Below, piece by piece: positions 3,066-64,000 of a DNA stretch of 64,000 bases. Origin of the DNA: Squalus acanthias (taxonomy: Eukaryota); NCBI GenBank assembly GCA_030390025.1, contig CM059432.1, positions 46,812,001-46,876,000 on the forward strand, read 5' to 3'. Under the pieces are notes generated by a model, which did not search any database, was not told the DNA's origin, and was given only the letters and a program-made list of their open reading frames with translations. The number at the start of each line of letters is the position of its first letter. Within the stretch, counting starts at the first letter, position 1. Made by a program: the position numbers and the translations under genes.

Positions 3066-3955
3066 TCCAAAGGAGGACATTAATAAACTTGCAGAATGGG
3101 CATATAATTGGCAAATGAAGTTCAACACAGATAAATGTGAGGTATTACATTTTAGTAGGAAGAATAGGGAGGTCACTTATCACTTGGGAGGTGTGAGTCT
3201 AGGAGGGGTAGGGGAACAAAGGGATCTAGGAGTACAAATACACAAATCATTAAAAGTTGCGACACAGGTTAGCAAGGCCATAACAAAAGCAAACCAAGCA
3301 CTAGGGTTTATTTCTAGAGGGATAGAATTGAAAAGTAGGGAAGTTATGCTAAATCTGTAACCCATATCGAATCTTGGTTAGACTACACTTAGAGTACTGC
3401 GTACAGTTCTGGTCGCCATATTATAAAAAGGATATAGAGGCACTGGAGAGGGTGCAGAGAAGATTTACAAGGATGATACCAGAAATGTGAGGGTATACAT
3501 CTCAGGAAAGGATGAACAGGCTGGGTCTCTTTTCTCTTGAAAAAAAAAGGCTGAGGGGTGACTTAATAGAGGTCTTTAAAATTATGAAAAATTTTGATAG
3601 AGTGGATACAGAGAGAATGTTTCCACTTGTGGGGAAGAGCATAACTAGAGACCATCAATATAAGATAATCACCAAGAAATCAAATAGGAAATTCAGAGGA
3701 AACTTCTTTACCCAAAGAGTGGGGAGAATGTGGAACTCGCTACCACAGGGAGTGGTTGAAACAAATAATATCGATGCATTTAAGGGGAGGCTAGACAAGC
3801 ATATGAGGAAAAAGCGAATACAGGGTTATGCTGATAGATTTAGACGAGGAAAGACGGGAGAAGGCTCGAGTGGAGCATAAACGTTGGCATGGACTGGTTG
3901 GGCCAAATGGTCTGTTTCTGTGCCGTATATCCTATGTAATCCTATATAATCCTAT
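3066..3955 (+). mobile_element. CR1 LINE 3' fragment lying between two L2 pieces
   Basis: WQMKFNTDKCEVLH, RLGLFSLEKKRLRGDLIEVFKI. Tail of aatcctat-type repeats at about 3928-3955. Confidence 0.93.
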
Positions 3956-4252: not shown

Positions 4253-5715
4253 ATGAGTTGCAGTGCCAGCTGCTCTCAGGAAAGCCTAGCCTACATTCAT
4301 CCCAACCTGCGGTCCTTAAAGGATGGCCTGTTAGACCGCAACCAACAAGATAAGTTTTTTAAATATACTTACCTGAAATGTGGAACCGGGAAGAGCAGGA
4401 GCGCTTCTCCTGACCCCATGTTAAAAGTACGTGGGCCTCAACGGGCCCTTCAGAGAATATCAAGGGAGGCACAGATGGTAGCTGTGTGCTTATCTAAGAG
4501 GAATTCAAGCCTGGGCTGGAAGCAGGAGAGTAGGAAGGCAGTAGAGTAGTGATGGATTGAGGTAGGGTTTGGAGGGTATGCAAAGCACCCGCAATGGAGG
4601 AATGAGAGGTGGCATGACTGGGTGATAGAAAGGGCCCATCAATAAAACGAGGTGGCTCCCTTCTCCTTGTGGGGTGTGAGTTTAAAGAGGACATTTCCTG
4701 CTGTTCCCTAGATAAATAGGGCCCATCCTGGCTAAGGGGCCAGGGATAAGACAATTAACTCTCATTGTATTAGTTGTGAATGCCAAACCATCTGGCTTCA
4801 ATACTGAATGCCTGCAGCCTGTGGCCTTTTTTTAACATATGCAAATTAATTCTGTTTTGAAACACTATTTAAACATAACTCAATCGCCAAATTCTTTCCG
4901 TGAAGAAAGAAAAATGAAAAAAAAATCCCACAACATAACAAGGGGGAAAATGTGCCAAGATTCTTATTTCTGACCAATATCCTGTGACTTTTCCAGAAAG
5001 TGTGCATGTAGATGGTGGATGAGGACAAGATTGTTCATAGCTCTGGTCGCCATAATGGTTGAATAACCTGCCAGCATGCGCTATGCATGCTCACATGTGA
5101 AGAATGGTAACTTGGAGAAGGTACAGGTGAGTTGCTGCATCAGTACTCAGCACGAGTCAGCGCACTCAGGTATGGAGGGAGAAGATTAAATTAAATTATC
5201 ACTTTTGAGGCTATTTGGATGGACCCAGTTCCACCAGGATTTCACTCAACGTAACTAGCGTTGCAAATTCTGGTGATGGGAGCACAGGGATTTGAAATAG
5301 GATTACATAGGATTACATTGGATATACGGCACAGAAACAGGCCATTCAGCCCAACCAGTCCATGCCGGCGTTTATGCTCCACATGAGCCTCCTCCTGTCT
5401 TTCCTCATCTAAATCTATCAGCATAACCCTCTATTTCCTTTTCCCTCATATGCTTGACTAGCCTCTCCTTAAATGCATCTATACTATTCGCTTCAACCAC
5501 TCCCTGTGGTAGCGAGTTCCACATTCTCACCAATCTTTGGGTGAATAAATTTCTTCTGAATTCTCTATTGGATTTCTTGGTGACTATCTTATATTGATGT
5601 CCTCTCATTATGCTCTTCCCCACAAGTGGAAACATTCTCTCTGTATCCACTCTATCAAACCCTTTCATCATTTTAAAGACCTCTATTAGGTCACCCCTCA
5701 GCCTTCTTTTTTCAA

Positions 5716-6249
5716 AAATGAGAAGTCGCACAACACCAGGTTATAGTCCAACAGTTTTATTTAAAATTACGAGCTTTCGGAGCTGCTGCCCCTTCGACAG
5801 GTAGAGGTACAGTGAGGGAATCAAATACACAGTATATATACACAGAGAGCGACTTGTCTGCAGAGATACAATCCGTCAGGAAGGCACTACATCAAAGACA
5901 CATCAGAGCACAGCCAAGACAATGAGGTGGGTCACAGGGGGTCCAACGTGTCAAATGCTGCCATCTGCAGTTGAGCTCCTAACTTTTTTTTTTTTTTTTT
6001 TTTTTGGTTGGGTTTTGTTTTGTGTGTTTTTTTTTAAACTGGAAAGACAGACAACGATGTCGCGTCACGTTCTGTAGCGTGACATGAACCCGAGATCCCT
6101 ATTGAGGCCGTCCTCATGGGTGCGGAACTTGGCTATCAGTTTCTGCTCGATGATTTTGCGTTGTCGTGTGTCTCGAAGGCCGCCTTGGAGAACGCTAACC
6201 CGCAGATCCGAGGCTAAATGTCCTTGAATGCTGAAGTGTTCCCCGACTC
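5716..6249 (-). mobile_element. Penelope-like element 3' fragment (GIY-YIG C-terminus plus terminal region)
   Basis: ORF 6065-6256: VGEHFSIQGH..RKIIEQKLIAKFRTHEDGLNRD. Flanked by ttttcaa at 5709-5715 and 6250-6256. Confidence 0.88.
5768..5803 (-). ncRNA. Minimal hammerhead ribozyme motif, core mutated
   Basis: Minus strand: TAC-CTGTCGA-A-GGGGC-AGCA-GCTCC-GAAA-GC-TC-GTA. Stem I is TAC/GTA; CTGTCGA deviates from CUGANGA. Confidence 0.65.
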
Positions 6250-8575
6250 TTTTCAAGATAAAAGAGACCCAGCCTGTTCATCCTTTCCTGATATGTATAC
6301 CCTCGCATTTCTGTTATCATCCTTGTAAATCTTCTCTACACCCTCTCCAGTGCCTGTATATCCTTATTATAATATGGCAACCAGAACTGTACGCAGTACT
6401 TTAAGTGTGGTCTAACCAAGGTTCGATACAGGTTACAGGTTTAGCATAACTTCCCTACTTTTCAATTCTATCCCTCTAGAAATAAACCCTAGAGCTTGGT
6501 TTGCTTTTTTTATGGCCTTGTTAACCTGTGTCGCAACTTTTAATGATTTGTGTATTTGTACTCCGAGATCCCTTTGTTCCTCTATGCCACCTAGACTCGC
6601 ACCCTCCAAGTGATAAGTGACCTCCCTATTCTTCCTACCAAAATGTAATATCTCACATTTATCTGTGTTGAACCTCATTTGCCAATTATATGCCCATTCT
6701 GCAGGTTTATTAATGTCCTCCTGTAACTTGTTGCAGTCCTCCTCAGTATTGTCTATCCCCCCCAATTTGGTGTCATCCGCAAATTTAGAAATTGTGTTTT
6801 TGATTCCTAAGTCTAAATCGTTAATGTAAATTGTGAACAGCAGTAGTCCCAGCACTGATCCTTGTGGAACACCACTCCACCTTCTGACACTATGAATAGC
6901 TACCCTTTACTCCTACTTTCTGTTCTGAAGCCAGCCAGCAATCAATTCTGCTACTTGTCCCCTGACTCCGCATTCTCTGACCTTTGTCATCAGTCTATTA
7001 TGGGGTACCTTATCGAAGGCCTTTTGAAAATCTAAATAAATTACATCTACTGCATTACCATTGTCTACTCTCTGTTACCTCTTCAAAAAATTCAATAAGG
7101 TTGGTCAAGCAAGACTTTCCCTTTTGAAATCCATGTTGACTATTCATTATTATATTTTTAGTTTCTACATGTTCTTCTATTTTCTCCTTTAGTAGGGATT
7201 CCATTATTTTTCCTACCACCGATGTTAAGCTGACTGGTCTATAATTCCCTGGACACGTTCTATCCTCCTTCTTAAATATCGGTATTACGTTAGCTATCTG
7301 CCAGTCCTCTGGCACTATACCTTTTTCTAACAAATTATTAAATATGCGTGGTAATGCCTCTGCTATCTCTTCCCTAGATTCTTTTAAAATGCGTGGGTTT
7401 TATCCTCTTTGAGTTTGATTAATTTATTTAATATAGCCCCTTTTTTTATTTTAAATGCACTTATCTCATTACTAATCTCATCATCCAATGCCATGTCCAC
7501 CTGTTCTATCTCCCTGGTAAATACTGAAACAAAATTATTATTATATAATTATGATATAAAAAAATAGGGTCTGTTCACTTCTGCCAGCAGAGGTGGTACC
7601 CCAGGATTTCAAGGCTTATTAGTCCAATAAATATCACATTATGCCCAGAATAGCAAAAGAACTTGCTGCAAATGTGGGATTTGAATGATGTCACTCAACA
7701 TCAATTCATCCAGGGAAACAGATCTATCATGATTTGTCAAATTATGTTGATGGATCAGTGATTGTTTTAAAATTTTGTGGCAGGTCTTTTGTTAATTCAT
7801 CAACAGATCAAGTACTTTGACAAGCTACTTTCATAGACATTCACAAACAGGAAATGTCAGCTGGGTTTAAATAAAGGTAGGGATGTTAAAAGGGTGCTCT
7901 TTTATATTTATTGATATTTGTAGAAAATTCTTTCATGTGCTCTGACAGAACACAACAGTGCCTCAGTGAAATCATTAACAATCATGTTTGCCATCCATCG
8001 TTCATTCATATGTTCGAGAAATTGCAGAGAATCTGAAAAAGTCAGTTACTTTGCTATAACAGAAATTTCATTAATTAGGTAATATATATATAATTGTTTT
8101 TGGGAGGGAGGAATTGGAGGGAGTGACGACACAAAATCAGAACCGTAGCGCATACTTGTGGGGCAAATCGCGCAGGATGCCATATTGGTGAGGACATTAG
8201 CATGCGCAGTGAACGCCCGCCGGAAGTAAGCAGAGTAGGCAGACCATGACGTCAATAAGCGTGCAACACTGATTTGATGCCAGCGCTGCCATTTTGAAGC
8301 TCAACGCTCCAGCCAAATGACTTTCTTAAGCTCGCACAGCTGAACATGCATTCAGCAGCAGGAAGGAACCCCTACCAGTGCTATTTAAAGGGATCATCAA
8401 CTACTTAAAGGTTAGTTGCTGGTTGATTTCTTCTGGCTGTTGGTATGCATCTACAAGTGTTTGGTGCTTCCTATAGTTATTTAAAGTTACCAAAGTCTAC
8501 AGGGAGTGGTATGGCAGGTGCTAAAGGACTTTTTCCTGAGTTCAAGGCTCCTGCACAAACTACTTGCTGCCAGAC

Positions 8576-15530: not shown

Positions 15531-16350
15531 CTGGATCGATCTGACGGCACCCTGCAATGTAGTCCTGCTAGTGTCTCAAGGGTTGTAGTTGTGCCCTGTA
15601 TTCTACAGAACTTTGCTTTAGAAAGATGCTCAGCAGAAGAAGCCCGCATGGGCAGCAAGAGGACAGTGGTAGGCTGAAGAGGCTACAGCCTGCTGAAAGA
15701 GAGATTTGTGCCATTATCATACAGGAGACTTCTCTTAAATACCATATCTAGCTAATACATTAACAAATCCGTGTACATCTACCCCCTTCTCTCCATAAAT
15801 ATGCCATTACCTACAGATGCTTCTCCATGCGCAGCAACTCACAAAGCTTCCTTTCACGCCAGTGCAAAAAAACAGCTTTGGCACTTTCCAAGAATGATGT
15901 CTGCACAGCCATAATTTTAATGTGAAACCATACCGTGTGTGTGCCTAGTATTTACTTCCACAATGCTTCCCCTTGATGATAGTGTGTGATGCATGTACTC
16001 TTAAACCTAGACTTGTGCTTCCCCAGGAGCTATCTCAGTGGCAAGGGTGTATGAGGTGGATGCTGTGTTGTCGTTGGGGTTTTCCAGGTAGCTAAGTCCT
16101 GAGATGGACCTTCTGCAGGCTGCACCTGCTGTCTGGCCCTGCTCGTGTATTCTCATGATCATTCATCTGCAGGAAAGCAGACTTAATGGTACCAATGAAA
16201 TCAGTGAAGCCCTGCTCTATGGTTCCCTGTAACTAATTGCCAAGCCTTTCGAAGCTGCAAGTTTGCAGTGTGTTTGTCTTGTCAGTGCGTTTGTCTTGTC
16301 AGTGCTCTTCTGCAGGTGACATGTGAGCTGCTATGTGCATGCTATTATTA

Positions 16351-16701
16351 CAGGTTGAGCATCCCAAATCCGGAGTTCCGGAATACGGAATGTTCCGGAT
16401 TCCAGAATGTTCTGGAATCCGGACTCCGGGACAATTGGTGGCAGGGGTCCGGAATCCGTAAAATGTTCCAGAATCCGGACACCCTGAGGGAGGCTTACCA
16501 AAAACCGGAAATAGCGCAACCTGGGCCCAGGTATTTCCGCACTCAGAACGTGTTTCTGATGTCCGAAGTCCAGAAATATCGCAACCTGGGCTCGGGCGTT
16601 TCCGGACTTCGGACATCAGAAACACGTTCTCAAGTCCGGAAAAACCCGAAAACCGGCTCGGCCTCAGTCCCGAGGTTGCCGGATTTGGGACGCTCAACCT
16701 G
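16351..16701. mobile_element. Tc1/mariner (Tigger/pogo-type) MITE
   Basis: 23-bp TIR caggttgagcatcccaaatccgg with 1 mismatch, TA on both sides, internal tccgga repeats. Confidence 0.88.
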
Positions 16702-18138
16702 TATCCCCCTACTGCATATGTGTCATGGAGCATCTATTGAGTGAAAGAATGCTGCTAAAAGGAGCCAGTGATCTCTGCAGGTTTTACAGCTGATCTCTCT
16801 GAGGGTGCAGCATATGAACATTTATGGTGTACATATGTATATAAAGTACCTTGGCACTTCTGATGCCAGTGAACTTTTTCCTCATTTGCCCCCAGGAATG
16901 GCAGACCTGGGAGAATGCATTAATTCAGTCAGTGACCTCCATCCATGCAGCTTGTTTCTACAGAGCTCAGCACCAAACAGGGTCAACCTTCTTTGTTGCA
17001 CTTCCAGCAGTAAAATCTCCAACAAATCATTACTGAAGGCACATACCTTTGATGCTGCCCTCATCACACACTTGCTTCAAATCACTTACACCCTTCAGCT
17101 GAACAATTGCAGGCAGCGCCCCTTTAGCAGCAAGAAGCAGCCCTGATTTTGGCAGACTCAGAAAATCAGGACTGGGATAGTAATTGCAGATGGACAATTT
17201 GATTTTATTGCATATATATTACATACTTTTCAGCCAAGCAATTTAATGTTATTGTATTGAGCATCAGCATGTTTGGGGAATTGGGATTGGGAGCAATTGG
17301 GACAGTTTTATTTTATCATGGCCAATTTTATTTTATTGGATATATATTTTTGAGCTTTAGTACAAAGCAATTTAATTTTATTATATTCGGCATCAATGTG
17401 GTTAAGAAAGGAGGGGGAAAGGGAGAAGGGAGTTGGGAGCAGGGGGAGGAAATTGCTCCTAATTCCCTCCATTTATTTCACATAATCTGAACATTGCAAT
17501 ACATGCACTTCATCTTTTCTTTTGATTTAACACTACTCCTTTCTCTTAATTTTTTTTTGCTGATCAAACACCTTTGCCTAGAATTTGCACAGGCATTCTT
17601 CGGCAGAAGATCAGCTGAACCTTTGGAGAAATGGCATCAATGGCTATAAACTTCCATTTATGTCTTTTTTCCAGAGTTTCTGCCAATTTTCCACTGAAGT
17701 TACAAAGGAAATGGGGAAGACCCTGGAAATTCTCCCTCTTCGTTCATTCATCTGTCTTTTTTCTGCTTATAACTGGTCAATTCGATTTTCCTCCTCCACT
17801 CCCTTTATTGTTTCTGCAATCTATCTCTTTTCCTAAATTATTTTTGTATTTATATATTAACCTCATCTATTTCAAATTTCTCTACTTGTTCTTTCTGGTT
17901 ACTTTTATTTTCCCTACTGCCTTCCTTCCTAGTTTAAATGACTTTTCACTTCCCTATTTATCCTTTTTGCCAGTACATCAGCTTCCTTCATGTGCAGATG
18001 TAGCCCATCCTTGCGGAATAATTCCCATCTTCCCCAGAACTGATGCTTATGCCCACAAAGCCAAAACCTGCTTCCTGATAACAACTCTTTAGCTATGTGT
18101 TGAGCTCCTTAACATTCCTATCCATCCCTATTCCAGCA

Positions 18139-27566: not shown

Positions 27567-28276
27567 GCTGCTGGCAGATACCTCCGTTGGGGAAGCGCTC
27601 AGTCCAAGCGGGGAGAGGGTCTTCCAAGAAGGTCCCACAGTTGAGAGAATCATAGAATCATAGAAAGTTACAGCATGGAAGGAGGCCATTTCGGCCCATC
27701 GTGTCCGCGCCGGCCAACAAAGAGCTATCCAGCCTAATCCCACTTCCCAGCTCTTGGTCCGTAGCCCTGTAGGTTAGAGCATCCCAAGTGCATATCCAAG
27801 TACTTTTTAAATGTGGTTAGGGTTCCTGCCTCTACCATCCTTTCAGGCAGTGAGTTCCAGACCCCCACAACCCTCTGGGTGAAGAAATTTCCCCTCAAAT
27901 CCCCTCTAAACCATCCACCAATTACTTTAAATTTGTGCCCTCTGGTTTTTGACCCCTCTGCTAAGGGAAATAGGTCCTTTCTATCCACTTTATCTCTGCC
28001 CCTCATAATTTTATACACCTCAATAAGGTCTCCCCTCAGCCTCCTCTGTTCCAAGGAAAACAGACCCAGCCTATCCAGTCTTTCCTCATAGCTAAGATTC
28101 TCTACTCCCGGCAACATCCTTGTAAATCTCCTCTGTACCCTCTCTCGTGCAATCACATCTTTCCTGTAATGTGGTGACCAGAACTGCACGCAGTACTCTA
28201 GCTGAGGCCTAACTAGTGTTTTATACAGTTCAAGCATAACCCCCCTGCTCTTGTATTCTATGCCACGGCTAATAAA

Positions 28277-28475
28277 TCTGAGAAGTCGCCCAACACCAGG
28301 TTACAGTCCAACAGTTTTATTTGAAATCACAAGCTTTCGGAGCGCTGCTCCTTCACCTGACGAAGGAGCAGCGCTCCGAAAGCTTGTGATTTCAAATAAA
28401 ACTGTTGGACTATAACCTGGTGTTGTGCGACTTCTCACATTTGTCCACCCCAGTCCAACACCGGCATCTCCACAT
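28277..28475 (+). mobile_element. Fold-back Penelope-like mini-insertion
   Basis: Inverted arms of about 77 bp plus a unique tail of about 38 nt. 13-bp TSD cacggctaataaa (28264-28276 and 28476-28488). Homologous to 5719-5800. Confidence 0.9.
28353..28389 (+). ncRNA. Minimal type I hammerhead ribozyme motif with intact core
   Basis: TCAC-CTGACGA-A-GGAGC-AGC-GCTCC-GAAA-GC-TT-GTGA. Palindromic AGCT stem III; predicted cleavage after CUU (28385). Confidence 0.78.
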
Positions 28476-31400
28476 CACGGCTAATAAAGGCAAGCATTCT
28501 GTATGCCATCTTGACCACCTTATCTACCTGGCCTGCTACCTTCAGGGATCTGTGGACATGCACTCCAAGGTCCCTTTGTTCCTCTACACTACTCAGCGTC
28601 CTACCATTTAATGTGTATTCCCTTTCCTTGTTAGCCCTCCTCAAATGCATTACCTCAAACTTCTCCGGATTGAATTCCATTTGCCACTGTTCTGCCCACC
28701 TGACCAATTTATTGATGTCTTCCTACAGTCTACAGCTTCCTTCTTCAGTATCAACCACACAGCCGATTTTAGTATCATCTGCAAATTTCTTAATCATACC
28801 CCCTATATTCAAGTCTAGTTCATTGATATATACCACAAAAAGCAAGGGACCTAGTACTGAGCCCTGCGGAACCCCACTGGAAACAGCCTTCCAGTCACAA
28901 AAACACCCATCAACCATTACCCTCTGCTTCCTGTCTCCGAGCCAGTTTTGAATCCAACTTGACACTTTGCTCTGGATCCCATGGGCTTTTAACTTCGTGA
29001 CCAGTCTGCCACGTGGAACCTTATCAAAAGCCTTGCTAAAGTCCATATACACTACATCAAACACACTACCCTCATCTACCCTCCTCATTACCTCCTCAAA
29101 AAATTCAATCAAGTTTGTCAGACACGACCTTCCCTTAACAAATCTGTGCTGACTATCCTTGATTAATCCGTGTCTTTCTAAATGAAGATTTATCCAGTCC
29201 TTCAGAATTCTTTCCAATAATTTTCCCACCACCAAGGTTAGGCTGACTGGCCTGTAATTACTCGGTCTATCCTTTTCTGCCTTTTTAAACAAGGGTACCA
29301 CATAAGCAGTCCTCCGGCACCACACCTGAAGCCAGAAAGGATTGAAAAATGATGGTCAGGGCCTCTGCTATTTCCTCTTTTGCTTCGCTTAACAGCCTGG
29401 GATGCATTTCATCCGGGCCTGGGGATTTATCCACTTTGAAAGCTGCTAAACCCCTAAATACTTCTTCTCTCACTATGTTTATTTCATCTAATATTTCACA
29501 CTCCTCCCCCTGATAGCAGAGATAGAAGTTGCAGCACCTCCGACTTTGGTAGGCCTGCTGACAGTGCTGAAAGACCTTTTGAACAAAAGTTCTGCCACCT
29601 GCAACTGACCCCTGATGAAAGCTACGTTTTAATGGTGGAGCTGTAGCTGTGAGGAGGCCACCCACTTGTCAACCCGCCAGGTTTAGCTGGTGTGGTTTAG
29701 GAGGGCCGTGGAACATGCTGAAACTGTGGTAAAATAACGAGGGCCTGTCAAAATAGGATTATAGAGGCCCTTAACTACTATTTAAGGGTCTTAACCACCT
29801 CTCTGGACTGCTGGAAGTGGGACCGAATCACACCCATCAAAACCGCCTCTGGCAAATTTGCGCGGAGGCGGGTTCCAAACCAGCACAGTTTTTGCCATTT
29901 TGCCAACTATCCCGCCTCCAAACCCGCCTCCTCGGGGCTGGGAAAATCGCCCCCTTTGTTATTTAACCCCTTTCAAGCCTATTCCCACCTCTATCATTTA
30001 ATCTCGAATCAGTGAGAAGGAAGACAAAAAATAGCAACAAGATGGCCTAGACAAGCAGGAGGGTGAAGCACATTCTGCAGCTGCTAGAACCATTCATCAG
30101 CCTCTCATTGACAAGACCCTATCCAGCCATTGCATCAACAGTCATTCTCTACATCTTCTCCATGTCTTTAAGAAATATTCCTTCATCTACCCTTCTACAC
30201 ACTGCCAAAGATCCCATTTGTGTCACCTGCGGATATATTATCTAACACCATAACAAGAACACTTTCTGGATATAGTACAATTTCATAGCCACCAAATTGT
30301 ATTACCCTAAATGTGATGCATGTGTCTTCCTAGTGTTAAGCACCCTTGTCCTATACAACCTAGTACTTCTTCTATGTGCTCCCCCACTGCAGGAGTATGT
30401 GAGGTGGCTGGCTGCTATGTGTCGATCAAAGGGTGTTGTGATTAGCCTTGGCCTCTCTGAGATAAGTCTTCACATGGCCCAGCTTGTGGCACTACCATTT
30501 CTGCAGTTGCGTAGGTGGCCTGCCCATGCTTATTTCTGGATGTGTTGTTATCCTGAGAGACAGCACCATCATCCATGCCCAGTCCACCCTTGCATCTGCC
30601 TCTGGACATTGTCTCACCATGCCAATTGATTGCATGACAGCAGACTTAATGACTGCAATTAAATTGTTGAAGCCTAATTAACAGTTTTCTCCATCCAATT
30701 CCCAAGCCTGCACAAGCAATATTAAAAAGCCTCTTACATTGTAGCCAAAGGCCTCTATGGCAGCAGACTGAACATTCATGACATATGTTTCAAGTGGCCT
30801 TAGGGATTCTGCCATGGAAGGCTCCACTGCAGATGTTGGAGTGCAGTGTTGGGATCATCAATAATGCGCATATCCGAGTAGTAGACTCCTCCACACTAGG
30901 TATTATTTGTTGAAAGTTGCTTGGCAAGGCCTCTAAAGCAGCAATCTTTGATAACCAGAAAACATTCTTCTTTTAAAAATAGGTTGCCTGAGATTCAAAT
31001 CCATGATCTCATAATGCAGAATGGGTGCAAGCTGATCATCCGCTTCCACCAAGTGGATTCTGCCCACTTGAAGTCTGTATAACATACTGTCCACCTCTTG
31101 CTAATGGGAGAGCAAAGTAACGCCTACATAAGGCTGTCTTTGAACACTTCCCAGCTGGAGGGATGTTCTCAGTCTCTCTCTCAGATGCAACTCCTTCCTG
31201 GCAGTTAGCCCCTACTATATAGCCCAGCAGCTCTTTTCAGTAGTAAACGAGTAGTAATTTTTGGTATGATAATTAATGATAATTGTTTCACGACATTTAA
31301 GTGGAATGGGAGCAAATTGTAAAAACGTACTGGAAAGCCAGCAATAGTTACATAATTTAAAAAATCTGCTTATAATTAGAAGAACTATTTTTTTGAACTT

Positions 31401-34584: not shown

Positions 34585-35477
34585 GGGGTAAAAATTCAGT
34601 TGGTTGCGCCTCCCGTTAGCGCCTTAAGAGGGCACTAATGGGGCGCAAAGCCGCTAACGCCCGGGCGCAGCGATGTTTGCGCCGCTCGGGAACTTAACTA
34701 GAGATTGTGCGGCGGCGCTAAACCTTACCGCTGCGACCACCTGCGCACGCAGATTGTGACGTCATTCCATGGTGCAACGCCCTTGTGGCGCCTCGGAGTG
34801 GAAATTGAGTGGCGCCCCCTGCCTTACCGCCTGGCGCATCCAACGACCAGAAGACTGGAACGCTATCAATCGCTGTGGGGCTGGGGGGGGCGCTATTTAA
34901 AGGGGGCCTCTTCCTGTCTTTTATTGTTGGTGGCATTTTTGAACTACGCATTCTGAGAGAGAAAGGGAGAGACTTCTGGAGAGATTCAACGTTGTGTGAA
35001 GGAGTTTTGGGTACTGAGCAGCACTTTGCAGGTTCATTTTGATTTGCCATTCCTTGTATCGATTTAGCTGAGACTGTGGGAGCTGCACTCTGAGCTCTTT
35101 GCCTGGTACTCTCCATTGTTCTTTCCAGCACATTTGATGTGCAAGTCTCTCCAGGCCGAGATTCAAGGCTGCAATGAACAGGATGTGGATGGAAAGCAAG
35201 ATTAACCATCCCCTTTAAGAACTGGCCCGTGCCATTGTGTGTGTGTTCCATTGCTGACTGACATTACATGAGCTTCGCCAGCGCTCTGAGTTAGCGCCTC
35301 ACTCCTTGGCCTTTGCGCCTTAAGACAGGTGTGCAGCGCCTGCTTTAGCGCTCCACTCACCTCCCGGGGCGGTAAAAGTGAAGTTTCCAGTCAGTGCCGA
35401 TAATTAGCGCCAGGCGCTAATATTTGCGTCCAGACAATATTTGCGCCCCAAATGGGGCGCGACCTAATTTCTACCCC
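34585..35477. mobile_element. Harbinger-type non-autonomous element (MITE)
   Basis: TIR ggggtaaaaatt / aatttctacccc, TSD TCA. Same family as 62173-62856. Confidence 0.85.
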
Positions 35478-37001: not shown

Positions 37002-37764
37002 GGCCCTGAATTTGCGGTCGGAGGCTTCCCGTGGGGAAATGCCTCCGATCCTCAAATAAAATCCACGCTTACCTGGTGGTCCGGGAGGTACAGAGACTCA
37101 CGGTCCTAGGCCTCTCCGGGTGCCCGTGGGAAGAGGCCCACGTATCCCGGGCGCAGGCGGATCGCAAGCGCCCCGGGATCACATGGGCCGGCCCAACGAA
37201 TGACAGAAGGGAATCCCCATTCATGCTTATGGAGATTCCGTATGTACGGAAACCTCATAAGCATGAATGAAAATACCCCAAAAAATACATCTACACTTCA
37301 AATTAATTTTTTTTAATTACTTATTTATAATTAATTAAAATGGCATTTAATTAAATAATTAAAACAAAAATGTAATGTTTTGAAAAATAAATTTACATGT
37401 TTTAAAGGGGCTAAAAATAAACGTGCCTTATTTCACAGGTTTTTAAATGTATAAATTACTGATAAAATTTTATTTTTCTGTTTTTTAAAACTCTTGAGAG
37501 GTAAAAGCAGGCCTTATGCCTGCTTTTACCAGGCTTAAGAATTTCACAGATATTCGCTGAGCAGAAGTTGGGCAAATAGCCCGACTCTCCGCCCACGGAT
37601 GTCCATTTCCCAGGGATGCAGATGAGCCCTCAAAAAAATTCTTGACAGATTGCAAGTTCCGGGTTTTAGCACATGCGCAGCGCATGCCTAAACCCGGAAC
37701 TTGCGCAGCCCTTACGGGCGCATACACCCTCGTACGCACCTGTAGGGGCTGCAAATTACGGCCC
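37002..37764. mobile_element. Harbinger-type MITE
   Basis: TIR ggccctgaatttgc / gcaaattacggccc, TSD AAT. Confidence 0.85.
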
Positions 37765-52580: not shown

Positions 52581-55500
52581 ACTCCGATGGGGAGTGTTTG
52601 CTAATGCTGTTGGGGAGGGTTTAAACTAAAATGGCAGGGGGTTGGGAACCTGTGCAGGGAGACAGAGGAAAGGGAAGCAAGGATAGAAGCAAAAGACAGG
52701 AAGGAGAAAACCAACAGTGGAAGTCAGAGAAATCAAGGGTGTAAATCAAACATGGCCACAGTAAACAATAATTCTAAAAGGTCTAAGAGTGTTAAAAAAA
52801 CAAGCCTGAAGGCTTTGTGTCTTAATGCGAGGAGCATTCGTAATAAGGTGGATGAATTAGCTGTGCAAATAGATGTAAACGGATATGATATAATTGGGAT
52901 TACGGAGACATGGCTCCAGGGTGACCAAAGCTGGGAATTCAACATCCAGGGGTATTCAATATTTAGGAAGGACAGGCAAAAAGGAAAAGGAGGTGGGGTA
53001 GCATTGCTGGTTAAAGAGGAGATTAACACAATAGTAAGGAAGGATATTAGCTCTGATGATGTGGAATCTGTATGGGTAGAGCTGAGAAATACCATGGGGC
53101 AGAAAACGTTAGTGGGAGTTGTATACAGACCCCCAAACAGTAATGCAGAGGTTGAGGATGGCATTAAACAGGAAATTAGAGATGCATGCAGTAAGGGCAC
53201 AGCAGTTATCATGGGTGACTTTAATCTACATATAGATTGGGCTAACCAAATTAGTAACAATACTGTGGAAGAGGAATTCCTAGAGTGTATACGAGATGGT
53301 TTCCTGGACCAATATGTCGAAGAACCAACTAGAGATCAGGCCATCTTAGACTGGGTATTATGTAATGAGAAAGGATTAATTAGCAATCTTGTTGTGCGAG
53401 GCCCCTTGGGGAGGAGCGATCATAATATGATAGAATTCTTCATTAAGATGGAGAGTGAAGTAGTAGTTGACTCAGAGACTAGGGTACTGAATTTAAATAA
53501 AGGAAACTACGATGGTATGAGGCGCGAGTTGGCATGGATGGATTGGGGAATGTTACTTAAGGGTTGACGATGGATAGGCAATGGCAAACATTTAAAGATC
53601 AAATGGATGAACTACAGAATTTGTTCATCCCTGTTTGGCATAAAAATAAAACAAAAAAAGTAACTCACCCGTGGCTAACAAGGGAAATTAGGGATAGCAT
53701 AAGATCCAAGGAGAGGACATATAAATTGGCCCGAAAAAGCATCAAACCTGAGGATTGGGAGCAGTTTAGGATTCAGCAAAGGAGGACAAAGGGATTAATT
53801 AAGAGGCAGAAAATTGAGTATGAGAGTAAGCTTGCAGGGAACATAAAAACTGACTGTAAAAGCTTCTATTGATATGCGAAGAGAAAAAGATTGATGAAGT
53901 CAAGCGTAGGTCCCTTGCAGTCAGAATCAGGGGAATTTATAATGGGGAAAAAAGAAATGGCAGAGCAATTAAATACATACTTTGGTTCTGTCTTCACAAA
54001 GGAGGACACAAATAACCTCCCAGAGATGTCGGGGAACATAGGGTCTAATGAGAGGGAGTAACTGAATGAAATCAGTATTTGTAGAGAAATGGTGTTAGGG
54101 AAATTGACGGGATTGAAGGCCGATAAATCCCCAGGGCCTGATAATCTACATCCTAGGGTAGTTAAGGAAGTGGCCCTAGAAATAGTAGATGCATTGTTGG
54201 TCATCTTCCAAAATTCTATAGACTCTGGAACAGTTCCCATGGATTGGAGGGTAGCTAATGTAACCCCACTATTTAAAAAAGGTGGTAGAGAGAAAACGGG
54301 GAATTATAGACCGGTAAGCCTGACATCGGTAGTGGGGAAAATGCTAGAGTCCACTATAAAATTTGTAATAGCAGAGCACTTGGAAAACAGTGACAGGATC
54401 GGACAAAGTCAACATGGATTTACAAAAGGTAAATCATGCTTGACTAATCTACTGGAATTTTTTGAGGATGTAACTGGTAGAATAGATAAGGGATAACCAG
54501 TGGATGTGGTGTATTTGGACTTTCAGAAGGCTTTCGATAAGGTCCCGCATAAGAGATTAGCGTGCAAAGTTAAAGCACGTGGGATTGGGGGTAAGGTACT
54601 GACTTGGATAGAAAATTGGTTGGCAGACAGGAAGCAAAGAGTTGGAATAAATGGGTCTTTTTCCGAGTGGCAGGCAGTGACTAGTGGGGTACCGCAGGGA
54701 TAGGTGCTAGCACCCCAGTTATTCACAATATATATTAATGATCTAGACGAGGGAACTAGATGTAATATCTCCAAGTTTGCAGACGACACAAAGCTGGGTG
54801 GGCGTGTGTGCTGTGAGGAGAATGCAGAGAAACTCCAGTATGATTTGGACAGGTTGGGTGATTGGGCAGATGCATGGCAGATGCAGTATAATGTGGATAA
54901 ATGCGAGGTTATCCACTTTGGTGGCAAAAACAGGAAGGCAGATTATTATCTGAACGGCAATAGATTGGGAAAAGGGGAAGTGCAACGAGACCTGGGTGTA
55001 CTTGTGCACCAGTCACTGAAGGTAAGCATGCAGGTGCAGCAGGCGGTTAAGAAGGCAAATGGTATGTTGGCCTTCATAGCGAGAGGATTCGAGTACAGGA
55101 GCAAGGATGTCTTGCTGCAGTTACACAGGGCCTTGGTGAGACCACACCTTGAGTATTGTGTGCAGTTTTGGTCGCCTTATCTGAGGAAGGATGTTATTGC
55201 CATGCAGGGAGTGCAGCGAAGATTCACCAGACTGATACCTGGGATGGCAGGAATGACGTATGAAGAGAGATTGGGTCGATTAGGCTTGTATTCGCTAGAG
55301 TTTAGAAAAATGAGAGGGGATCTCATTCAAACTTATAAAATTCTAACAGGACTAGACAGATTAGATGCAGGAAGGATGTTCCCGATGGCGGAGGAGTCCA
55401 GAACCAGGGGTCACAGTCTAAGGATAAGGGGTAAGCCATTTAGGACTGAGATGAGGAGGAATTTCTTCACCCAGAGAGTGGTGAACCTGTGGAATTCTCT

Positions 55501-55712
55501 ACCACAGAAAGCAGTTGAGGCCAATTCATTAAATATATTCAAGAAGGAGTTAGATATATTTCTTAAGGCTAAGGGGATCAAGGGATATGGGGAGAAAGCA
55601 GGGACAGGGTACTGAATTTGGATGATCCGCCATGATCGCATTTAATGGCGGAGCAGGCTCAAGGGGCCGAATGGCCTACTCCTGCTCCTATCTTCTATGT
55701 TTCTATGTTTCT
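52581..55712 (+). mobile_element. CR1 LINE: ORF1 end plus complete but interrupted ORF2
   Basis: Endonuclease ORF 52752-53567 (LNARSIRNK, ITETWL, MGDFN, SDH) and RT to 55615. Tail (ttctatgt)n. Confidence 0.97.
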
Positions 55713-56779
55713 ATATAAATTGTGAACAACAGTGGTCCCAGCACTGATCCATGGCTGGAGAGATGATGCAGGAGGGAGGGCTTTAGATTCCTGAGGCATT
55801 GGCACCATTTCTGGGGAAGTTGGGACCTGTACAAGCCGGACGGATTACACCTCAACAGAGCCGGGACCAATATTCTCGCGGGGAGGTTTGCTAGTGCTGT
55901 TGGGGAGGGTTTAAACTAGCTTGGCAGGGGGATGGGCACTAGCATATAGGAGTAGAAAAGAGGAATAAGGTGCATAAAAGAGTGATTGTGTTGGATAGTA
56001 CTAGAGAAGAAAGTAGTACTAGAGGCAGAAGTAGTACCATATTAGATAGGAGCAGACTAAGAAAGACTACGAAAAAAATCAAAAATGTGTTTAGAAAGCC
56101 TGTGCATAAATGCACAAAGTGTGGTGAATAAGGTTGGTGAGCTACAAGCACAATTAGCCGCGTGGCAATCTGATGTTGTGGCAATAACGGAAACGTGGCT
56201 TAAAAACGGTGAGGACTGGGCACTTAATATTCAAGGGTACAAGGTGTTCAGAAAAGATAGGGAAGGAAAAAAGGGAGGTGGGGTGGCAGTGCTGATTAAG
56301 GAAGACATTGTAGTGTTGGAAAGGGAGGATGTTCTTGAGGGGACAAGGACAGAATCCATTTGGTTAGAGTTGAGGAGCAAAAAGTTTATGATCACGCTAT
56401 TGGGGGTATTCTATAGGCCTCCAAATAGTGAGAGGGAGGTAGAGGAGCAAATCTGCAGGGAAATCACAGATATGCAAGAGTTATAGAGTGGTGATATTGG
56501 GGGACATTAATTACCCAAATATCGATTGGGATAATGCTAGGGTAAAGGAAATGGAGGGGGAAGAATTTCTGAAATGTGTTCAGGAGAATTTCCTTGACCA
56601 GTATGTTCTTGGCCCAACTAGGAAAGAGGCATTGCTGAATCTGGTGCTGAGGAATGAGGTGGGCTAGGTTGACCAAGTGTCTGTGGGAGAATGCTTGGGT
56701 AGATTTAGATTTAGATTAGCAATGGAGAGGAGCAAGGAACAATTTAGAGTGGAACTTCTAAACTGGAATAGGGCTAACT

Positions 56780-59268
56780 ACATAAGAACATAAGAAATAG
56801 GAGCAGGAATAGGCCACTTGGCCCCTCGAGCCTGCTCCACCATTCAATAAGATCATGGCTGATCTTGGGCTCAAAGCCCCTTCCCCGCCCGCTCCACATA
56901 ACCCTTCACTCCCTTATCTTGCAAAAATCTGTCTATCTCCACCTTAAATGTATTTAATAACCCAGCCTCAACAGCTCTCTGGGGCAGAGAATTCCACAGA
57001 TTTACGACCCTCTGAGAGAAGAAATTCCTCCTCATCTCAGTTCTAAAAGGGCGACCCTTTATTCTAAAACTGTGGCCCCGAGTTCTAGATTTCCCCACAA
57101 GGGGAAACACCCTCTCTGCATCTACCTTGTCGTGCCCCCTCAGTATCTTATATGTTTCAATAAGATCACCTCTCATTCTTCTAAATTCCAAAGAGTATGG
57201 GCCCAGCCTGCTCAACCTTTCCTCATAAGTCAACCCCCTCATCTCTGGAATTAACCTAGTGAATCATCTCTGAACTGCCTCCAATGCAAGTATATCCTTC
57301 CTTAAATAAGGAGACCAAAACTGTATGCTGTACTCAAGGTGTGGTCTCACCAATACCCTGTAGAGTTGTAGCAGGACTTCCCTGCTTTTATACTCCAACC
57401 CCCTTGAAATAAAGGCCAAAATTCCATTTGCCTTTTTGATTACTTGCTGTACCTGCATACTAACTTTTTGTGTTTCATGCACAAGGACCTCCAGGTCCCT
57501 CTGAACTGTAGCATTTTGTAATCTCTCTCCATTTAAATAATAATTGGCTTTTTTATTTTTCCTGCGAAAGTGCATTACCGCGCACTTTCCCACATTATAC
57601 TCCATCTGCCAAATGTTTGCCCACTCACTTAGCCTGACTATATCCCTTTGCAGATTCTTTGAGTCCTCTGCACAACTTGCTTCCCCACCCATCTTTGTAT
57701 CATCCACAAACTTGGCTACATTACACTCGGTCCCTTCTTCCAAGTTATTAATGTAGATTGTAAATAGTTGAGGCCCCAGCACTGATCCCTGTGGCACCCC
57801 ACTAGTTACTGTTTGCCAACCGGAAAATGACCCATTTATCCCGACTCTCTGCTTTCTGTTAGTTAGCCAATTCTCTAACCATGCTAATATATTACCCCAA
57901 ATTCTGTGAGCTCTTATCTTATGCAGTAACCTTTTATGTGGCACCTTATCGAATGCCTTCTGGAAATCCAAATATACCACATCTACTGGTTCACCTTTGT
58001 CCACCCTGCTTGTTACATCCTCAAAGAACTCCAGCAAATTTGTTAAACATGATTTCCCTTTCATAAAACCATGCTGACTCTGCTTGACTGCATTATGATT
58101 TTCCAAATGGCCCTGCTACTGCTTCCTTAATGAAGGACTCCAGCATTTTCCCAATGACAGATGTTAGGCTAACTGGTCTATAGTTTCCTGCTTTCTGTCT
58201 CCCTCCTTTCTTAAATAGGGGTGTTACATTTGCGGTTTTCCAATCCGCTGGGTCCTCCCCAGAGTCCAGGGAATTTTGGTATATTGCAACCAATGCATTC
58301 ACTATCTCTGCAGCCATTTCTTTTAAGACCCTGGGATGCAGGCCATCTGGTCCAGGGGACTTGTTGTCTTTTAGTCCCATTATTTTACCAAGTACTATTT
58401 CCCTAGTGATAGTGATTGTCTTTAGTTGCCCCCTCCCTATGGCCCCTTGATTATCCATTTTTGGGATGTTGTTAGTGTCTTCTACCGTGAAGACAGATAC
58501 AAAATATTTGTTCAGAGCCTCTGCCATTTCCCCATTCTCCATTATTAATTCCCCAGTCTCATCCTCTAAGGGACCAACATTTACTTTAGCTACCCTCTTC
58601 CTTTTTATATACCTGTAGAAGCTCTTACTATCTGTTTTAATGTTTCTTGCCAGTTTTCTCTCATAATTCATCTTCTCTCTCTTTATTATTTTTTTAGTCA
58701 TCCTTTGCAGGTTTTTAAAAATTTCCCAATCCTCTGGTCTCCCACCAATCTAGGCAACATTGTATGCCTTTGATTTCAAATTGATACCATCCTTTACTTC
58801 CTTGGTTAGCCACGGATGGTGCTCCCTTCTCTTAAAATCTTTCTTTCTTACTAGAATATATTTTTGTTGAGAGTTATGAAATATCTCCTTAAATGTCCGC
58901 CACTGCATTTCAACTGTCTTACCCTTTAATTTATTTTTCCAGTCCACTTTAGCCAGTTCTGCCCTCATGCCATTGTAATTGCCTTTGTTTAAGATCAGGA
59001 CACTGGTTTGAGATACAACTTTCTCACCCTCCAACTGAATTTGAAATTCAACCATGCTATGATCACTCTTTCCTAGAGGATCCTTTACTGTGAGATCATT
59101 TATTAATTCTGTCTCATTACACAGTACCAGATCCAAGATAGCCTGCTCCCTGGTTGGTTCCATTACATACTGTTCTAGGAAACCATCCCGGATGCACTCT
59201 ATGAACTCCTCCTCAAGACTACCATGGCCAATTTGATTTGTCCAATCAATATGGAGATTAAAATCACT
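56780..59268 (-). mobile_element. CR1 LINE nested antisense in the previous CR1
   Basis: ORFs 58750-59163, 58093-58701, 57264-58106 and 56871-57242. Tail (ttcttatg)n. Host sequence gctaact|tcaatggg rejoins across it. Confidence 0.95.
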
Positions 59269-61313
59269 TCAATGGGATGTGAAAGGATCTAGCCAAGGTA
59301 AAATGGAACCAAAGACTGACAGGAAAAACTGTAACAGAACAATGGGTGATCTTTAAGGAGGAGATGTTCCAAGTAGAGGCTAGGTACATTCCAACAAGAG
59401 GGAAGGATAAGGGAACCAAAGCAAGGGCTCCTTGGATGATGAGGGAGATAGAGAAGATGATGAAACAAAAAAAGAGGGTGTATGATGCATGTCAGGTGAA
59501 TTCTTCAAGGGAGAACCAGACCAAATACAATAAGTTGAGAGGGGAAGTGAAGATGAAAATAAGATTGGCAAAGAGAGAATATGAGAGTAGAATGGTGGTT
59601 AACATAAAAGGGAACCCAAAAATCTTCTATCGGCATGTAAACAGTAAGCAAGTAGTAAGAGGCGGGGTGGGGCCTATTAGAGACAAAGAAGGTGATATAT
59701 GCTTAGAGGCACAGGGCAAGGCTAGAATACTCAATGAGTACTTTTTATTGGTGTTTACTAAGGAAGTGGATGCTGACAAAATATCGGTGGAAGTGGAAAA
59801 GGTAGAAGCAATGGAAGGGGTGAAAATTGATAGACAGGATGTACTAGAAAGGCTGGGTATGCATAGAGTGGACAAGTCGTCTGGTCCAGATGGTTTGCAT
59901 CCCAGGTTGCCAAGGGAACTGGGGGAGGAGATAGCGGAAGGGCTTGCCATAATTTTCCAATCTTCCCTAGATGCGGAGGAGGTGCCTGAGGATTGGAAAG
60001 TGGCAAATGTGACACCATTGTTCAAGAAAGGGCGTAAGGACAATCCTAGTAACTACAGGCCAGTCAGTTTAACATCAGTGGTGGGTAAAGTTTTAGAAAC
60101 AATAATCAAGGAAAATATTAATAGGCACTTGGAGAGGTTTAAGCAAATTAAGGAGAGCCAACACGGATTTGTAAAAGGCACATAGAAGGCTGGTTAACAA
60201 AATTGAGGATCATGGAATAGGTGGGTCAGTGGCAGCTTGGCTAAGGAATTGGCTTAAGGACAGAAAACAGCGAGTTGTGGTAAATGGCTGTTTTTCAGAC
60301 TGGAGGATGGTAAACAGTGGTGTTCCCCAAGGGTCAGTGCTGAGGCCACTGCCTTTTTTGATATATATATATATATAAATGACCTGGATATTGGAATACA
60401 GAGTAAAATTTCTAAATTTGCCAATGACACCAAACTTGGGGGTGTGGCAAACAGTGATGATGATACCAATCGACTGCAACAGGACATAGAAAGGCTAGCA
60501 GAATGGGCAGACAAGTGGCAGATGGAATCTAATACAGAGAAGTGTGAGGTGATGCATTTTGGCAGAAGGTACAGGGAGAGGCAATGTACACTTAATGGCA
60601 CAGTTTTAAAGAGTGTGCAGAGACAGAGGGACCTGGGAGTTAATGTGCATAGATCCCTGAAGTTGGCAGAACATATTGAGAGAGTGGTTAGAAAAACATA
60701 TGGGATCTTGGGCTTCATAATAGAGGTATTGAGTACAAAAGTAGAGAAGTTATGCTGAACCTAAAGCACTGGTTAGGCCACAACTGGGGTATTGCGTCCA
60801 GTTCTGGTCACCACACTTTAGGATGTGAAGGCCTTGAGAGGGTGCAGAGGAGATTTACCAGAATGGTTCTGGGGATGGGGGATCTTAGTTACAAGGACAG
60901 GTTGGAGAAGCTGGGTTTGTTTTCATTAGAACAAAGGAGGTTGAGAGGTGATTTGATAGAGGTGTACAAGATTATGACGGGTTTGGATAGGCTAGACAGG
61001 GAAAGGCTGTTCCCACTAGTTGATGGTACAAGGACTAGGGGACACAGATTTAAGGTTTTAGGCAAGAAATACAGGGGGAATGTGAGGAAAAACTTTTTTA
61101 CGATTGGTGAGGACCTGGAATTCGCTGCCGACGGAAGTGGTGGAAGCAGAGACACTCAATGTTTTCAAGGGGGACTGGAGAGGCACTTGAGGGAAATAAA
61201 CTTGCAGGGCTACGGGGATAGAGCGGGGGAATGGGACTGACTGGATTGCGCTACAGAGAGCCGGCATGGACTAAATGGGCCGAATGGCCTCCTTCTGTGC
61301 CGTATAACTCTAT

Positions 61314-62161
61314 GGGCTGGATTTTACCAGCCCTGAGGAGGCAGGGTTGGAGGCGGGACTGCTGGGAAAATCACAAAGAATGGAAGCGGGTCCCAAACCC
61401 GCTCCCAACCCGCCTCCAACCAATCTTCCCGGGAGTCAGGTCCCCGATTTGCGGAGGGACCTGACTCCTAGCGGCGGGAAGAGGATTATAGCCACTTAAG
61501 TGCCCGTTAACAGGCAGTTAAGAGGCTTTTTCCCATTTTGCGACTTCTGTTGCGGGCTTCCCTACATCAGGGAACCCCGCCAGGGTAAGTGAGGCATGCT
61601 GTGGGTCTGTTATAATGTTTTTGTATAGATGACAGCTGCAGGAGTGGTGTGAAGGATGCAATGGGACACTGGTGAGTATCAGAGGTAAGGAAATGTTGGG
61701 AAAGCCATTTTTAATGTGTTTAGATTTTTCTGTCGGTGACAAGCTTTGAAGTGTTTGTGTGGTCTCACTCTTTGGGAGAAGTGATAGATTGCTTCTGTAC
61801 CCTTACCTGCAGCTGCCATCTGATTTATCCTAAGGAGAGAGTCATTGGAGAGCTTGGGTGCTAGGGCTCACCTTTGTACAGTGATTGTCAGTGTTTGACA
61901 GCACCTCAATGCTGTCAAACACTGTCAAATCATCTGTCAAAAACAAATGTTTCATGTCCCTTTAAGAAAACCGGCATATGAAGCGTCATCAACTGACGTC
62001 ATCTGACACCGGCTTTCCCTTACTTGGCCAGCAATCCCGCAGGGCGGGCTTAACAAGGCCAATCAGGGGAAAATAGCGTCTGTGCGTCAGACGTCGCTGG
62101 GGGCAGGACTAGAAGGCTGCAGTCCAGCCCCCAACTCGTCTCGGTAAGTAAAGTCCAGCCC
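61314..62161. mobile_element. Harbinger non-autonomous element in a CR1 tail
   Basis: TIR gggctggattttac / gtaaagtccagccc, TSD TAT. Left end is related to 24071 and 43465. Confidence 0.88.
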
Positions 62162-62856: not shown

Positions 62857-63293
62857 AATGACTCTATGACTATGATCCTTGTGGAACACCACTACCCACC
62901 TTCTACCACTGTGAATAGCTACCTTTTACCCCTACTCTCTGCTTTCTGTCTTGAAGCCAGTTAGCTATCCATTCTGCTATTTGTCCCCTAACTCCACATT
63001 CTCTGACCTTGTTCATTAGTCTATTATGGGGTACCTTATCGAAGGCCTTTTGAAAATCTAGATAAATGGCATCTACTGCATTACCATTGTCTACTCTCTG
63101 TTACCTCTTCAAAAAATTCAAGCAAGACTTTCCCTTTTGAAATCCATGCCGACTATTCATTACTATGTTTTTGGTTTCTAGATGTTCTTCTATTTTCTCA
63201 TTCGTAGAGATTCCATTATTTTTCCTACCACCAATGTTAAGCTGACTGGTCTATAATTCCCTGGACATGTTCTATCCCCCCTTCTTAAATATA

Positions 63294-63489
63294 TGATGTG
63301 GAGATGCCGGTGTTGGACTGGGGTGGACAAATGTGAGAAGTCGCACAACACCAGGTTATAGTCCAACAGCTTTATTTAAAATCACAAGCTTTCGGAGCGC
63401 TGCTCCTTCATCAGGAGCAGCGCTCCGAAAGCTTGTGATTTCAAATAAAGCTGTTGGACTATAACCTGGTGTTATGCGACTTCTCACAT
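63294..63489 (-). mobile_element. Fold-back Penelope-like mini-insertion with hammerhead core (63382-63415)
   Basis: 12-bp TSD ttcttaaatata (63282-63293 and 63490-63501). Minus strand CTGATGA-A-GGAGC-AGC-GCTCC-GAAA-GC-TT-GTGA. Nearly identical to 28277-28475. Confidence 0.9.
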
Positions 63490-64000
63490 TTCTTAAATAT
63501 AGGTATTACGTTAGCTATCCGCCAGGCCTCTGGCACTACACCTTTTTCTAACGAATTAGTAAATATGCGTAGTAATGCCTCTGCTATCTCTTCCCTAGAT
63601 TCTTTTAAAATGTGTGGATGCAATCCATCCGGACCGGGGTTTTATCGTCTTTGAGTTTGATTAGTTTATTTAATACATCCCCTCTTTTTATTTTAAATGC
63701 ACTTATCTCATTACTAATGTCATGATCTCATGTCATGTCCACCTGTTCTATCTCCTGGTAAATACTGAAGCAAAATAATTATTCAATATTCCTGCCATCT
63801 CTCTGTTGTTACCTGTGGTATTATCCTGTCTATCCCTTAATGGCCCTATTCTCATCCTAACCTTCCTTTTTTTATTGATGTGCCTGTAAAATATTTTACT
63901 ATTTTGTTTTATATTTTGATGGGTCCAGTATGAGCACATAGCTGCACCTTCAAGAGGGGGTCTTATACAAAACTGCATGTAAATCATGCCTCATTAACAA

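Follow-up and report, generated by a model that had tools for sequence, protein, structure and literature searches.

Introduction

Inverted 5'-truncated copies, one-sided tails of 30-40 bp, TSDs and head-to-head palindromes are already described for Penelope-like elements (PLEs) in the available sections of PMC3846280 and PMC8557442, and the origin of PLE tandem and inverted structures, like the role of the hammerhead, is described as unresolved (PMC8557442, PMC11167929). In the Adineta vaga elements Pen2a, Pen2 and Pen3a, an inverted pLTR lies head-to-head with the direct one and is the shorter of the two; A. vaga PLEs also have a palindrome at the inverted junction (PMC3846280), a one-sided tail of 30-40 bp and a TSD around the whole unit (PMC3846280; scheme in PMC8557442). 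The same features recur in two insertions in the 64,000-nucleotide stretch of Squalus acanthias DNA analysed here (the window), but unlike in A. vaga, nothing lies between the pLTR ends, and the whole insert of ~200 bp is folded at a hammerhead core. The available text of PMC3846280 proposes antisense self-priming and does not mention a hammerhead. A search by title and start of abstract, with most subscription journals and Repbase/Dfam outside its range, returned no published account of such short palindromes, here called stumps, folded at a hammerhead core.

For PAc, a PLE of Anolis carolinensis, the available sections of PMC11167929 report that both target strands are nicked and extended, that reverse transcription starts at two internal sites bracketing the tail, that uncleaved RNA is the main template in vitro, and that 5' truncation of the RNA shortens the product, hammerhead mutants having no effect on insertion size. 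Two RT starts around the tail, AT-rich targets and extension of both ends are common to PAc and the shark inserts (PMC11167929). The PAc starts lie at +111 to +118 from an ORF start coinciding with stem II (PMC11167929); in the shark inserts, the distance from the start of stem II to the tail end is 111-113 nt. PAc belongs to the Poseidon clade, whereas the shark relatives carry a CX4CX2C linker that Penelope/Poseidon lack (PMC8557442), and its data therefore transfer by analogy only. Inverted junctions are not dealt with in the available sections of PMC11167929.

Minimal hammerheads of metazoan PLEs have, like the one in our insertion 1, a short helix I, an extra base between positions 9 and 10.1, G10.1-C11.1 and a palindromic 15.2-16.2 (PMC4209133); pairs of them 100-700 bp apart on opposite strands are also mentioned in the available text. 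In the shark inserts, by contrast, one core occupies the tip of an 80-bp hairpin, a structure predicted to prevent the core from folding. Animal non-LTR retrozymes resemble the stumps in being small, non-coding, hammerhead-bearing and related to PLE pLTRs (bioRxiv 10.64898/2026.07.22.740005). They are, however, tandem direct repeats with active ribozymes, whereas the stumps occur singly as inverted pairs, with a ribozyme that is either sequestered or broken. We rejected an assignment to the non-LTR retrozymes, since tandem direct repeats are absent and only three loci in the window carry this sequence.

Twin priming of L1 also involves two opposite-strand primers on one RNA and gives an inverted product with junction microhomology, features that the stumps share. 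L1 starts at the poly(A) end and places its second primer at variable internal sites, whereas the stumps have fixed internal starts ~36 nt apart. As the architecture has already been published, the stumps are of value as test material rather than as a new system: a stump of 200 bp contains the two RT starts, the two cDNA ends and the TSD.

Two palindromic insertions in LINE hosts

An earlier note, made from the sequence alone, had placed palindromic insertions at 28277-28475 and 63294-63489, flanked by TSDs of 13 and 12 bp, and both the coordinates and the TSDs proved exact. The parts of the two insertions are as follows.

28264..28276, plus strand: left TSD of insertion 1, 13 bp, a perfect repeat
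28277..28354, minus strand: short arm of insertion 1, an inverted pLTR end with its outer end at site A
28355..28475, plus strand: long arm of insertion 1, made up of a pLTR end and the tail, which occupies about 28440-28475
28476..28488, plus strand: right TSD of insertion 1, 13 bp
63282..63293, plus strand: left TSD of insertion 2, 12 bp, a perfect repeat
63294..63415, minus strand: long arm of insertion 2, with tail
63413..63489, plus strand: short arm of insertion 2, lacking the core and ending at site A
63490..63501, plus strand: right TSD of insertion 2, 12 bp, present as a single copy in the empty paralog near 7270

The arms of insertion 1 (28274-28354 and 28362-28442; 81 nt, 96%, 7-nt loop) and insertion 2 (63329-63407 and 63413-63491; 79 nt, 97%, 5-nt loop) rank first and second in length among the 11 listed inverted repeats of the window. 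The predicted folding energy of insertion 1 is -138.5 kcal/mol (z -22), a stability reached by 0 of 200 shuffles; the short arm of this insertion has three extra element bases that overlap the TSD as microhomology. The one-sided tail, for which the note had given about 38 nt, measures 36-37 nt (33-38 nt under other ways of counting the terminal microhomology), and the few bases by which the inversion junctions were said to differ correspond to a 6-nt indel between the two centres. Mismatches between arms number 3/81 in insertion 1 and 2/79 in insertion 2, so the insertions are young, though not brand new.

Both palindromes are true insertions, because other LINE copies in the window can be aligned straight across the emptied sites. 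With the insert and one TSD removed, the flanks of insertion 2 align to the LINE copy at 7161-7396 (93% over 237 columns) and those of insertion 1 to six paralogous LINE stretches (66-71%). The hosts had been named as CR1 elements. Their identity as LINEs is supported by RVT_1 matches in three of the six translations scanned, and the QFWSP motif that adjoins insertion 1 in its host is of CR1 type. All three pLTR copies in the window (insertions 1 and 2 and the copy 3 described below) sit in LINEs. As LINEs cover at least 16,989 of the 64,000 bases, a figure whose seeds included the host LINEs, we did not accept these three of three as LINE targeting by the element.

At their outer ends, the insertions have 2-3 bases in common with the target (insertion 1: TTT and CA; insertion 2: TT), such that the boundaries of TSD and element overlap at 28274-28276, 28476-28477 and 63490-63491. 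These shared bases hint at short primer-template pairing, which PMC11167929 did not observe in PAc.

A third copy and the identity of the family

Within the window, BLAST with the long arm found one further locus only, at 5713-5802 on the minus strand (91% over 90 columns). The earlier note had counted two insertions; both are real, but the copy at this locus, copy 3, had been missed.

5716..6249, minus strand: copy 3, from a sister subfamily; a 5'-truncated insertion with a 7-bp TSD and with neither inversion nor tail
6074..6247, minus strand: C-terminal 58 codons of a PLE ORF in copy 3, 54/58 identical to the shark protein P0002

Copy 3 is 534 bp long, has an empty paralog at 3500-3570, and contains the endonuclease C-terminus, 3' UTR and pLTR end. 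It runs through the hammerhead into the ORF without inversion or fold-back, and it stops at site A, where the short arms stop. Site A is therefore an independent 3' end, used by copy 3 with a 7-bp TSD and with neither an inverted arm nor a tail.

The proposed derivation of the arms from an inverted Penelope pLTR is borne out by their match to copy 3, whose ORF end so closely resembles P0002. This shark protein has an RT with an RVT_1 match, the CX4CX2C linker and a GIY-YIG-like motif (VVY..YIG), and the matching protein P0005 has a GIY-YIG domain above cut-off; among the 28 matches to the copy 3 ORF, all named NCBI matches are from sharks. A CX2-5CxxC zinc-finger linker lies between RT and EN in 4/4 relatives checked, and such a linker is given as diagnostic of Neptune and Nematis in the available text of PMC8557442. 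Because of the CX4CX2C linker, we place the family with Neptune/Nematis, an assignment by motif that does not tell the two types apart. Judged from sequence, then, an EN+ Penelope-like element of Neptune/Nematis type supplied the pLTR ends that form the arms, with the link from arm to ORF passing through the sister subfamily of copy 3 rather than through the palindromes' own parent. The inverted 5'-truncated copy, the 30-40-bp one-sided tail and the TSD are all present in both palindromes, which are 5'-truncated PLE ends and the smallest form of the published pattern of an inverted pLTR with a one-sided tail.

No full-length shark ORF was present among the 37 cluster members listed. Isoforms of the shark gene models XRCC5, PPP1R12A-like, FAM210B, FAM204A and DIPK2Ab (proteins P0003, P0014, P0023, P0028 and P0036) match or cluster with the element ORF, reflecting either exonisation or annotation error.

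Hammerhead motif at the fold point

The palindromes had been described as both folded at a hammerhead ribozyme. This stands for insertion 1, which matches the minimal descriptor; insertion 2 fails it, because three of its four stem I pairs are gone.

28353..28389, plus strand: complete minimal type-I hammerhead of insertion 1, by descriptor match, with predicted cleavage
5768..5803, minus strand: hammerhead of copy 3, with a private A6-to-U core change, matching the relaxed core only

In insertion 1, the motif comprises a 4-bp stem I, the core CUGACGA at 28357-28363, an extra A, a 5-bp stem II, GAAA and the palindromic GC, with the predicted cut at 28385|28386. The strict descriptor gave a single match in the window, at 28357, against 0.01 per shuffle (100 shuffles), and relaxing it by one core base added copy 3. 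Insertion 2 retains the whole core, CUGAUGA, with 1 nt upstream of it. Stem I shows a compensatory change between copy 3 (UAC/GUA) and insertion 1 (CAC/GUG). The core change of copy 3 is private to it, as position 5797 is read as T at a depth of 568,930 of 569,636 in read-contig run X1. Rfam gave 0 hammerhead matches at gathering score in the window, and no hammerhead family was among the 13 matches at E<=10.

Stems I and II pair with a probability of 0.82-0.97 in the isolated long arm of insertion 1, and with a probability of 0.0 in both whole hairpins. From these predicted folds, the ribozyme would not be expected to work in transcripts of the inserts, whatever its role in the parent RNA. 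All 29 nt running from core C3 as far as the predicted cut are still present, which fits an uncleaved RNA template, as the earlier note had supposed, and agrees with the PAc data in vitro (PMC11167929). A cleaved and re-ligated RNA circle, as proposed in the available text of PMC4209133, is also compatible with the retained 29 nt, but it would have no 5' end for run-off.

Fold-point junctions

Both centres carry a short overlap between the arms.

28351..28354, plus strand: junction microhomology of insertion 1, CTTC, 4 nt (5 nt should N7 of the template core have been U)
63413..63415, plus strand: junction microhomology of insertion 2, AGG, 3 nt

The CTTC at 28351-28354 can be assigned either to the tip of the inverted arm or to native element sequence ahead of the core. 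Insertion 1 retains 2-6 nt of long-arm sequence upstream of C3, and insertion 2 retains 1 nt. Each fold point sits on an inverted micro-repeat of 3-5 nt around the core (CTTC/GAAG in insertion 1, CCT/AGG in insertion 2), and the two fold points differ. As the upstream context of the palindromes' own subfamily lies outside the window, we took it from the loose-end consensus of run X9, which comes from another organism and reads CTTCAC before the core (102 contigs, agreement 0.71), matching insertion 1. Given this native context, the two overlaps correspond to short inverted repeats already present on either side of the core in the element.

The arms of insertion 2 have one base in common that insertion 1 lacks. 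Taken with the differing centres, this base points to a separate formation event for each hairpin, with a single template or source, or the base could come from later homogenisation of the arms. That the junctions cluster at the core rests on two of two copies.

Survey of read contigs and sequence collections

Contigs of 4 of the 21 listed runs were aligned to copy 3 (8,970, 1,086, 7,871 and 1,482; 19,409 in total), and the family was abundant in all three organisms sampled by the contig runs. Among 24 of the 341 loose ends, 81 contigs of X1 leave copy 3 at 5719 into unrelated flanks (agreement 0.40) and 72 leave at 5713, where tail sequence adjoins the reference (agreement 0.41). One strand-change joint was found among the 19,409 contigs (X1, 5749 to 5794, asymmetric), junction contigs being short and stem II of copy 3 different; for these likely reasons, a single joint is no evidence against clustering at the core.

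Joints back to the pLTR end in the DNA runs start at 5747-5767, downstream of the core, in eight of nine cases. These positions lie 3-23 nt downstream of the predicted cut of copy 3 (5771|5770), and two X9 joints reach about 5768-5769 once subfamily bases are counted. Such joints could mark copies made from cleaved RNA, and alignment bias toward the reference explains them equally well. Depth in X1 stood at 0.83 M at 5790-5799, 0.09 M at 5810-5819 and 1.38 M at 5930-5939. We rejected the drop across the core as a signal of truncation, since depth is not copy number and mixes subfamily divergence with truncation.

A 25-nt pLTR pattern gave 0 matches in viral and metagenome contigs. With a 17-nt pattern, 33 metagenome and 22 prokaryote loci were returned, all 55 of which we dismissed as chance (longest arm alignment, 27 nt), and a search with P0002 for a related viral contig found none.

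Model for the origin of the palindromes

We favour a model in which two-ended priming, run-off near the RNA 5' end and joining by microhomology explain the stumps, and we give it about an equal chance of being right or wrong. Stump insertions would be built afresh at each integration. The element protein would bind an uncleaved transcript whose start lies within the pLTR, a few bases ahead of the hammerhead, and an AT-rich target would be nicked on both strands 12-13 bp apart; the TSDs are directly visible here, and two-strand nicking comes from PAc in vitro only. One target end would prime cDNA at the tail end (site B), giving the long arm with its tail, and the other would prime at the pLTR end (site A, about 36 nt upstream), giving the short arm without it. 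This two-start geometry is seen in both inserts, the start sites themselves having been demonstrated in vitro for PAc. With each start just 80-125 nt away from the core, transcription beginning immediately upstream of the core would provide a template for two short cDNAs, both running off at the RNA 5' end or close to it after 80-125 nt. Their 3' ends would then be joined, by whatever route, at the nearest short inverted repeat around the core. The ribozyme would mark the fold point solely through the adjoining transcript start, templates from an internal or downstream pLTR of a longer transcript would give copies that continue into the ORF, like copy 3, and the stumps would be dead on arrival.

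The putative transcription start just upstream of the core is suggested by a sequence motif in copy 3.

5811..5840, minus strand: TATATATA plus Inr-like TCACT in copy 3, a sequence motif only, with predicted +1 at 5813

Counted from the predicted +1 (5813), the TATA start is 27 nt away and core C3 (5800) follows 13 nt downstream. The pair of TATATATA and TCACT has two matches in the window against 0.27 expected, for a pattern picked after copy 3 had been seen, and it also occurs in a rotifer pLTR (PMC3846280). It belongs to the sister subfamily, the palindromes' own upstream region lying outside the window. Among 40 of the 47 variants listed, one falls in the TATA stretch, at 5839 (depth 3,008 of 63,998 in X1). 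The sole PLE promoter mapped experimentally in the available literature, that of D. virilis, is TATA-less, with its start 46 nt upstream of an intron (PMC2377424) whose end abuts the hammerhead (PMC4209133). Points against the favoured model include the number of junctions, two, the TATA-less D. virilis promoter, the identical product of self-priming by snap-back, and the contig survey, in which one strand-change joint rather than a cluster was seen, on a reference unsuited to the purpose. The base shared by the arms of insertion 2 also constrains a two-primer model, as it implies one template or source (or later homogenisation).

In such a snap-back, a tail-primed cDNA runs off near the RNA 5' end, folds on the micro-repeat and copies itself, with the end at site A arising when the second strand is resolved by the endonuclease or pairs with the target. 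We consider this fairly unlikely. Both junctions fit a 5-nt loop, the cDNA end of insertion 1 folds back in silico (-5.1 kcal/mol), and arms within an insertion have variants in common; self-priming has also been argued from palindromic head-to-head junctions, there with an antisense template (Arkhipova 2013, PMC3846280). Snap-back nevertheless needs a separate reason for the copied arm to stop at site A, which is also the 3' end of the non-inverted copy 3 and, by analogy, an RT start in PAc, and the 3-bp fold-back that it requires for insertion 2 is absent from the predicted minimum-energy fold. The earlier note had instead looked to the ribozyme, supposing that RT repeatedly stalls or switches there. 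Run-off with microhomology joining, which it had not considered, would explain the same junctions with no role for the ribozyme, and a fold point beside the ribozyme follows more simply from run-off at the RNA start than from the ribozyme itself. That RT stalls or switches at a folded, uncleaved and possibly protein-bound hammerhead, whose structure sets the fold point, is in our judgement unlikely. In its favour, two of two insertions have a long arm that stops 1-6 nt upstream of the core, inside or beside stem I, and a short arm that stops at the 3' edge of the core; stems I and II form with the high probability given above when the long arm of insertion 1 is folded alone, and the PAc hammerhead is protein-assisted (PMC11167929). 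However, an RT moving 3' to 5' has by then passed the 3' strand of stem I, stem II and the core, which leaves little structure to act as a stop; copy 3 passes through the hammerhead; and PAc core mutants leave product size unchanged, its length being set by 5' truncation (PMC11167929). We are equally doubtful that the element's own RT meets, in an uncleaved hammerhead bound by protein, a programmed signal to stop or switch strands. If it did, stereotyped hairpins of ~200 bp would make up a large share of shark Neptune insertions, PLE hammerheads would have a catalysis-independent role, and the element would itself create a source of dsRNA against the family.

Also raised earlier was a mobilised hairpin unit, that is, a non-autonomous, retrozyme- or MITE-like element of ~200 bp, and here the data speak against the claim and make it very unlikely. 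Its appeal lies in the near-identical size and ends and the clean TSDs of the two insertions, in the existence of non-autonomous PLE derivatives with hammerheads (bioRxiv 10.64898/2026.07.22.740005) and in the ability of pLTRs to mobilise other sequence in trans (PMC3846280). The centres differ, however, which argues against one master (several masters are compatible with two insertions), and the arms of each insertion have their own variant in common. The hammerhead stems are predicted to be unpaired in both whole hairpins, and PAc needs RNA to +172, ~55 nt past the RT start (PMC11167929), whereas a stump ends there and holds no such downstream RNA. Retrozymes are moreover tandem direct repeats, and palindromes or hairpins go unmentioned in the available text of bioRxiv 10.64898/2026.07.22.740005. 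It is also highly improbable that there is no special clustering at all, with a short-biased 5' truncation and a likeness that arose through selection of conspicuous palindromes. The sample of two allows it, and 5' ends do occur elsewhere, as in the asymmetric X1 joint and the eight of nine DNA-run joints, but those contig joints are biased toward the alignable part of the reference, and the two long-arm ends lie no more than 6 nt apart at about 120 nt from the start.

Other features of the window

A MITE-like element of 355 bp at 16349-16703 is bounded by 25-nt terminal inverted repeats (96%) starting with TA and contains numerous TCCGGA-like repeats as well as an inner inverted repeat of 32 nt; it is presumably a non-autonomous transposon of Tc1/mariner type. 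Imperfect palindromes lie at 62241-62320 (40-nt arms, 85%, no loop) and 37209-37278 (34-nt arms, 79%), with no pLTR kinship by BLAST and no match to the hammerhead descriptor. The stretch 62774-62856 matches 34585-34666 at 82%. Adjoining LINE copies in both orientations fill about 8.8 kb at 52589-61400, and the facing LINE copies at 53215-55708 and 56780-59267 are 70% alike over 2.5 kb.
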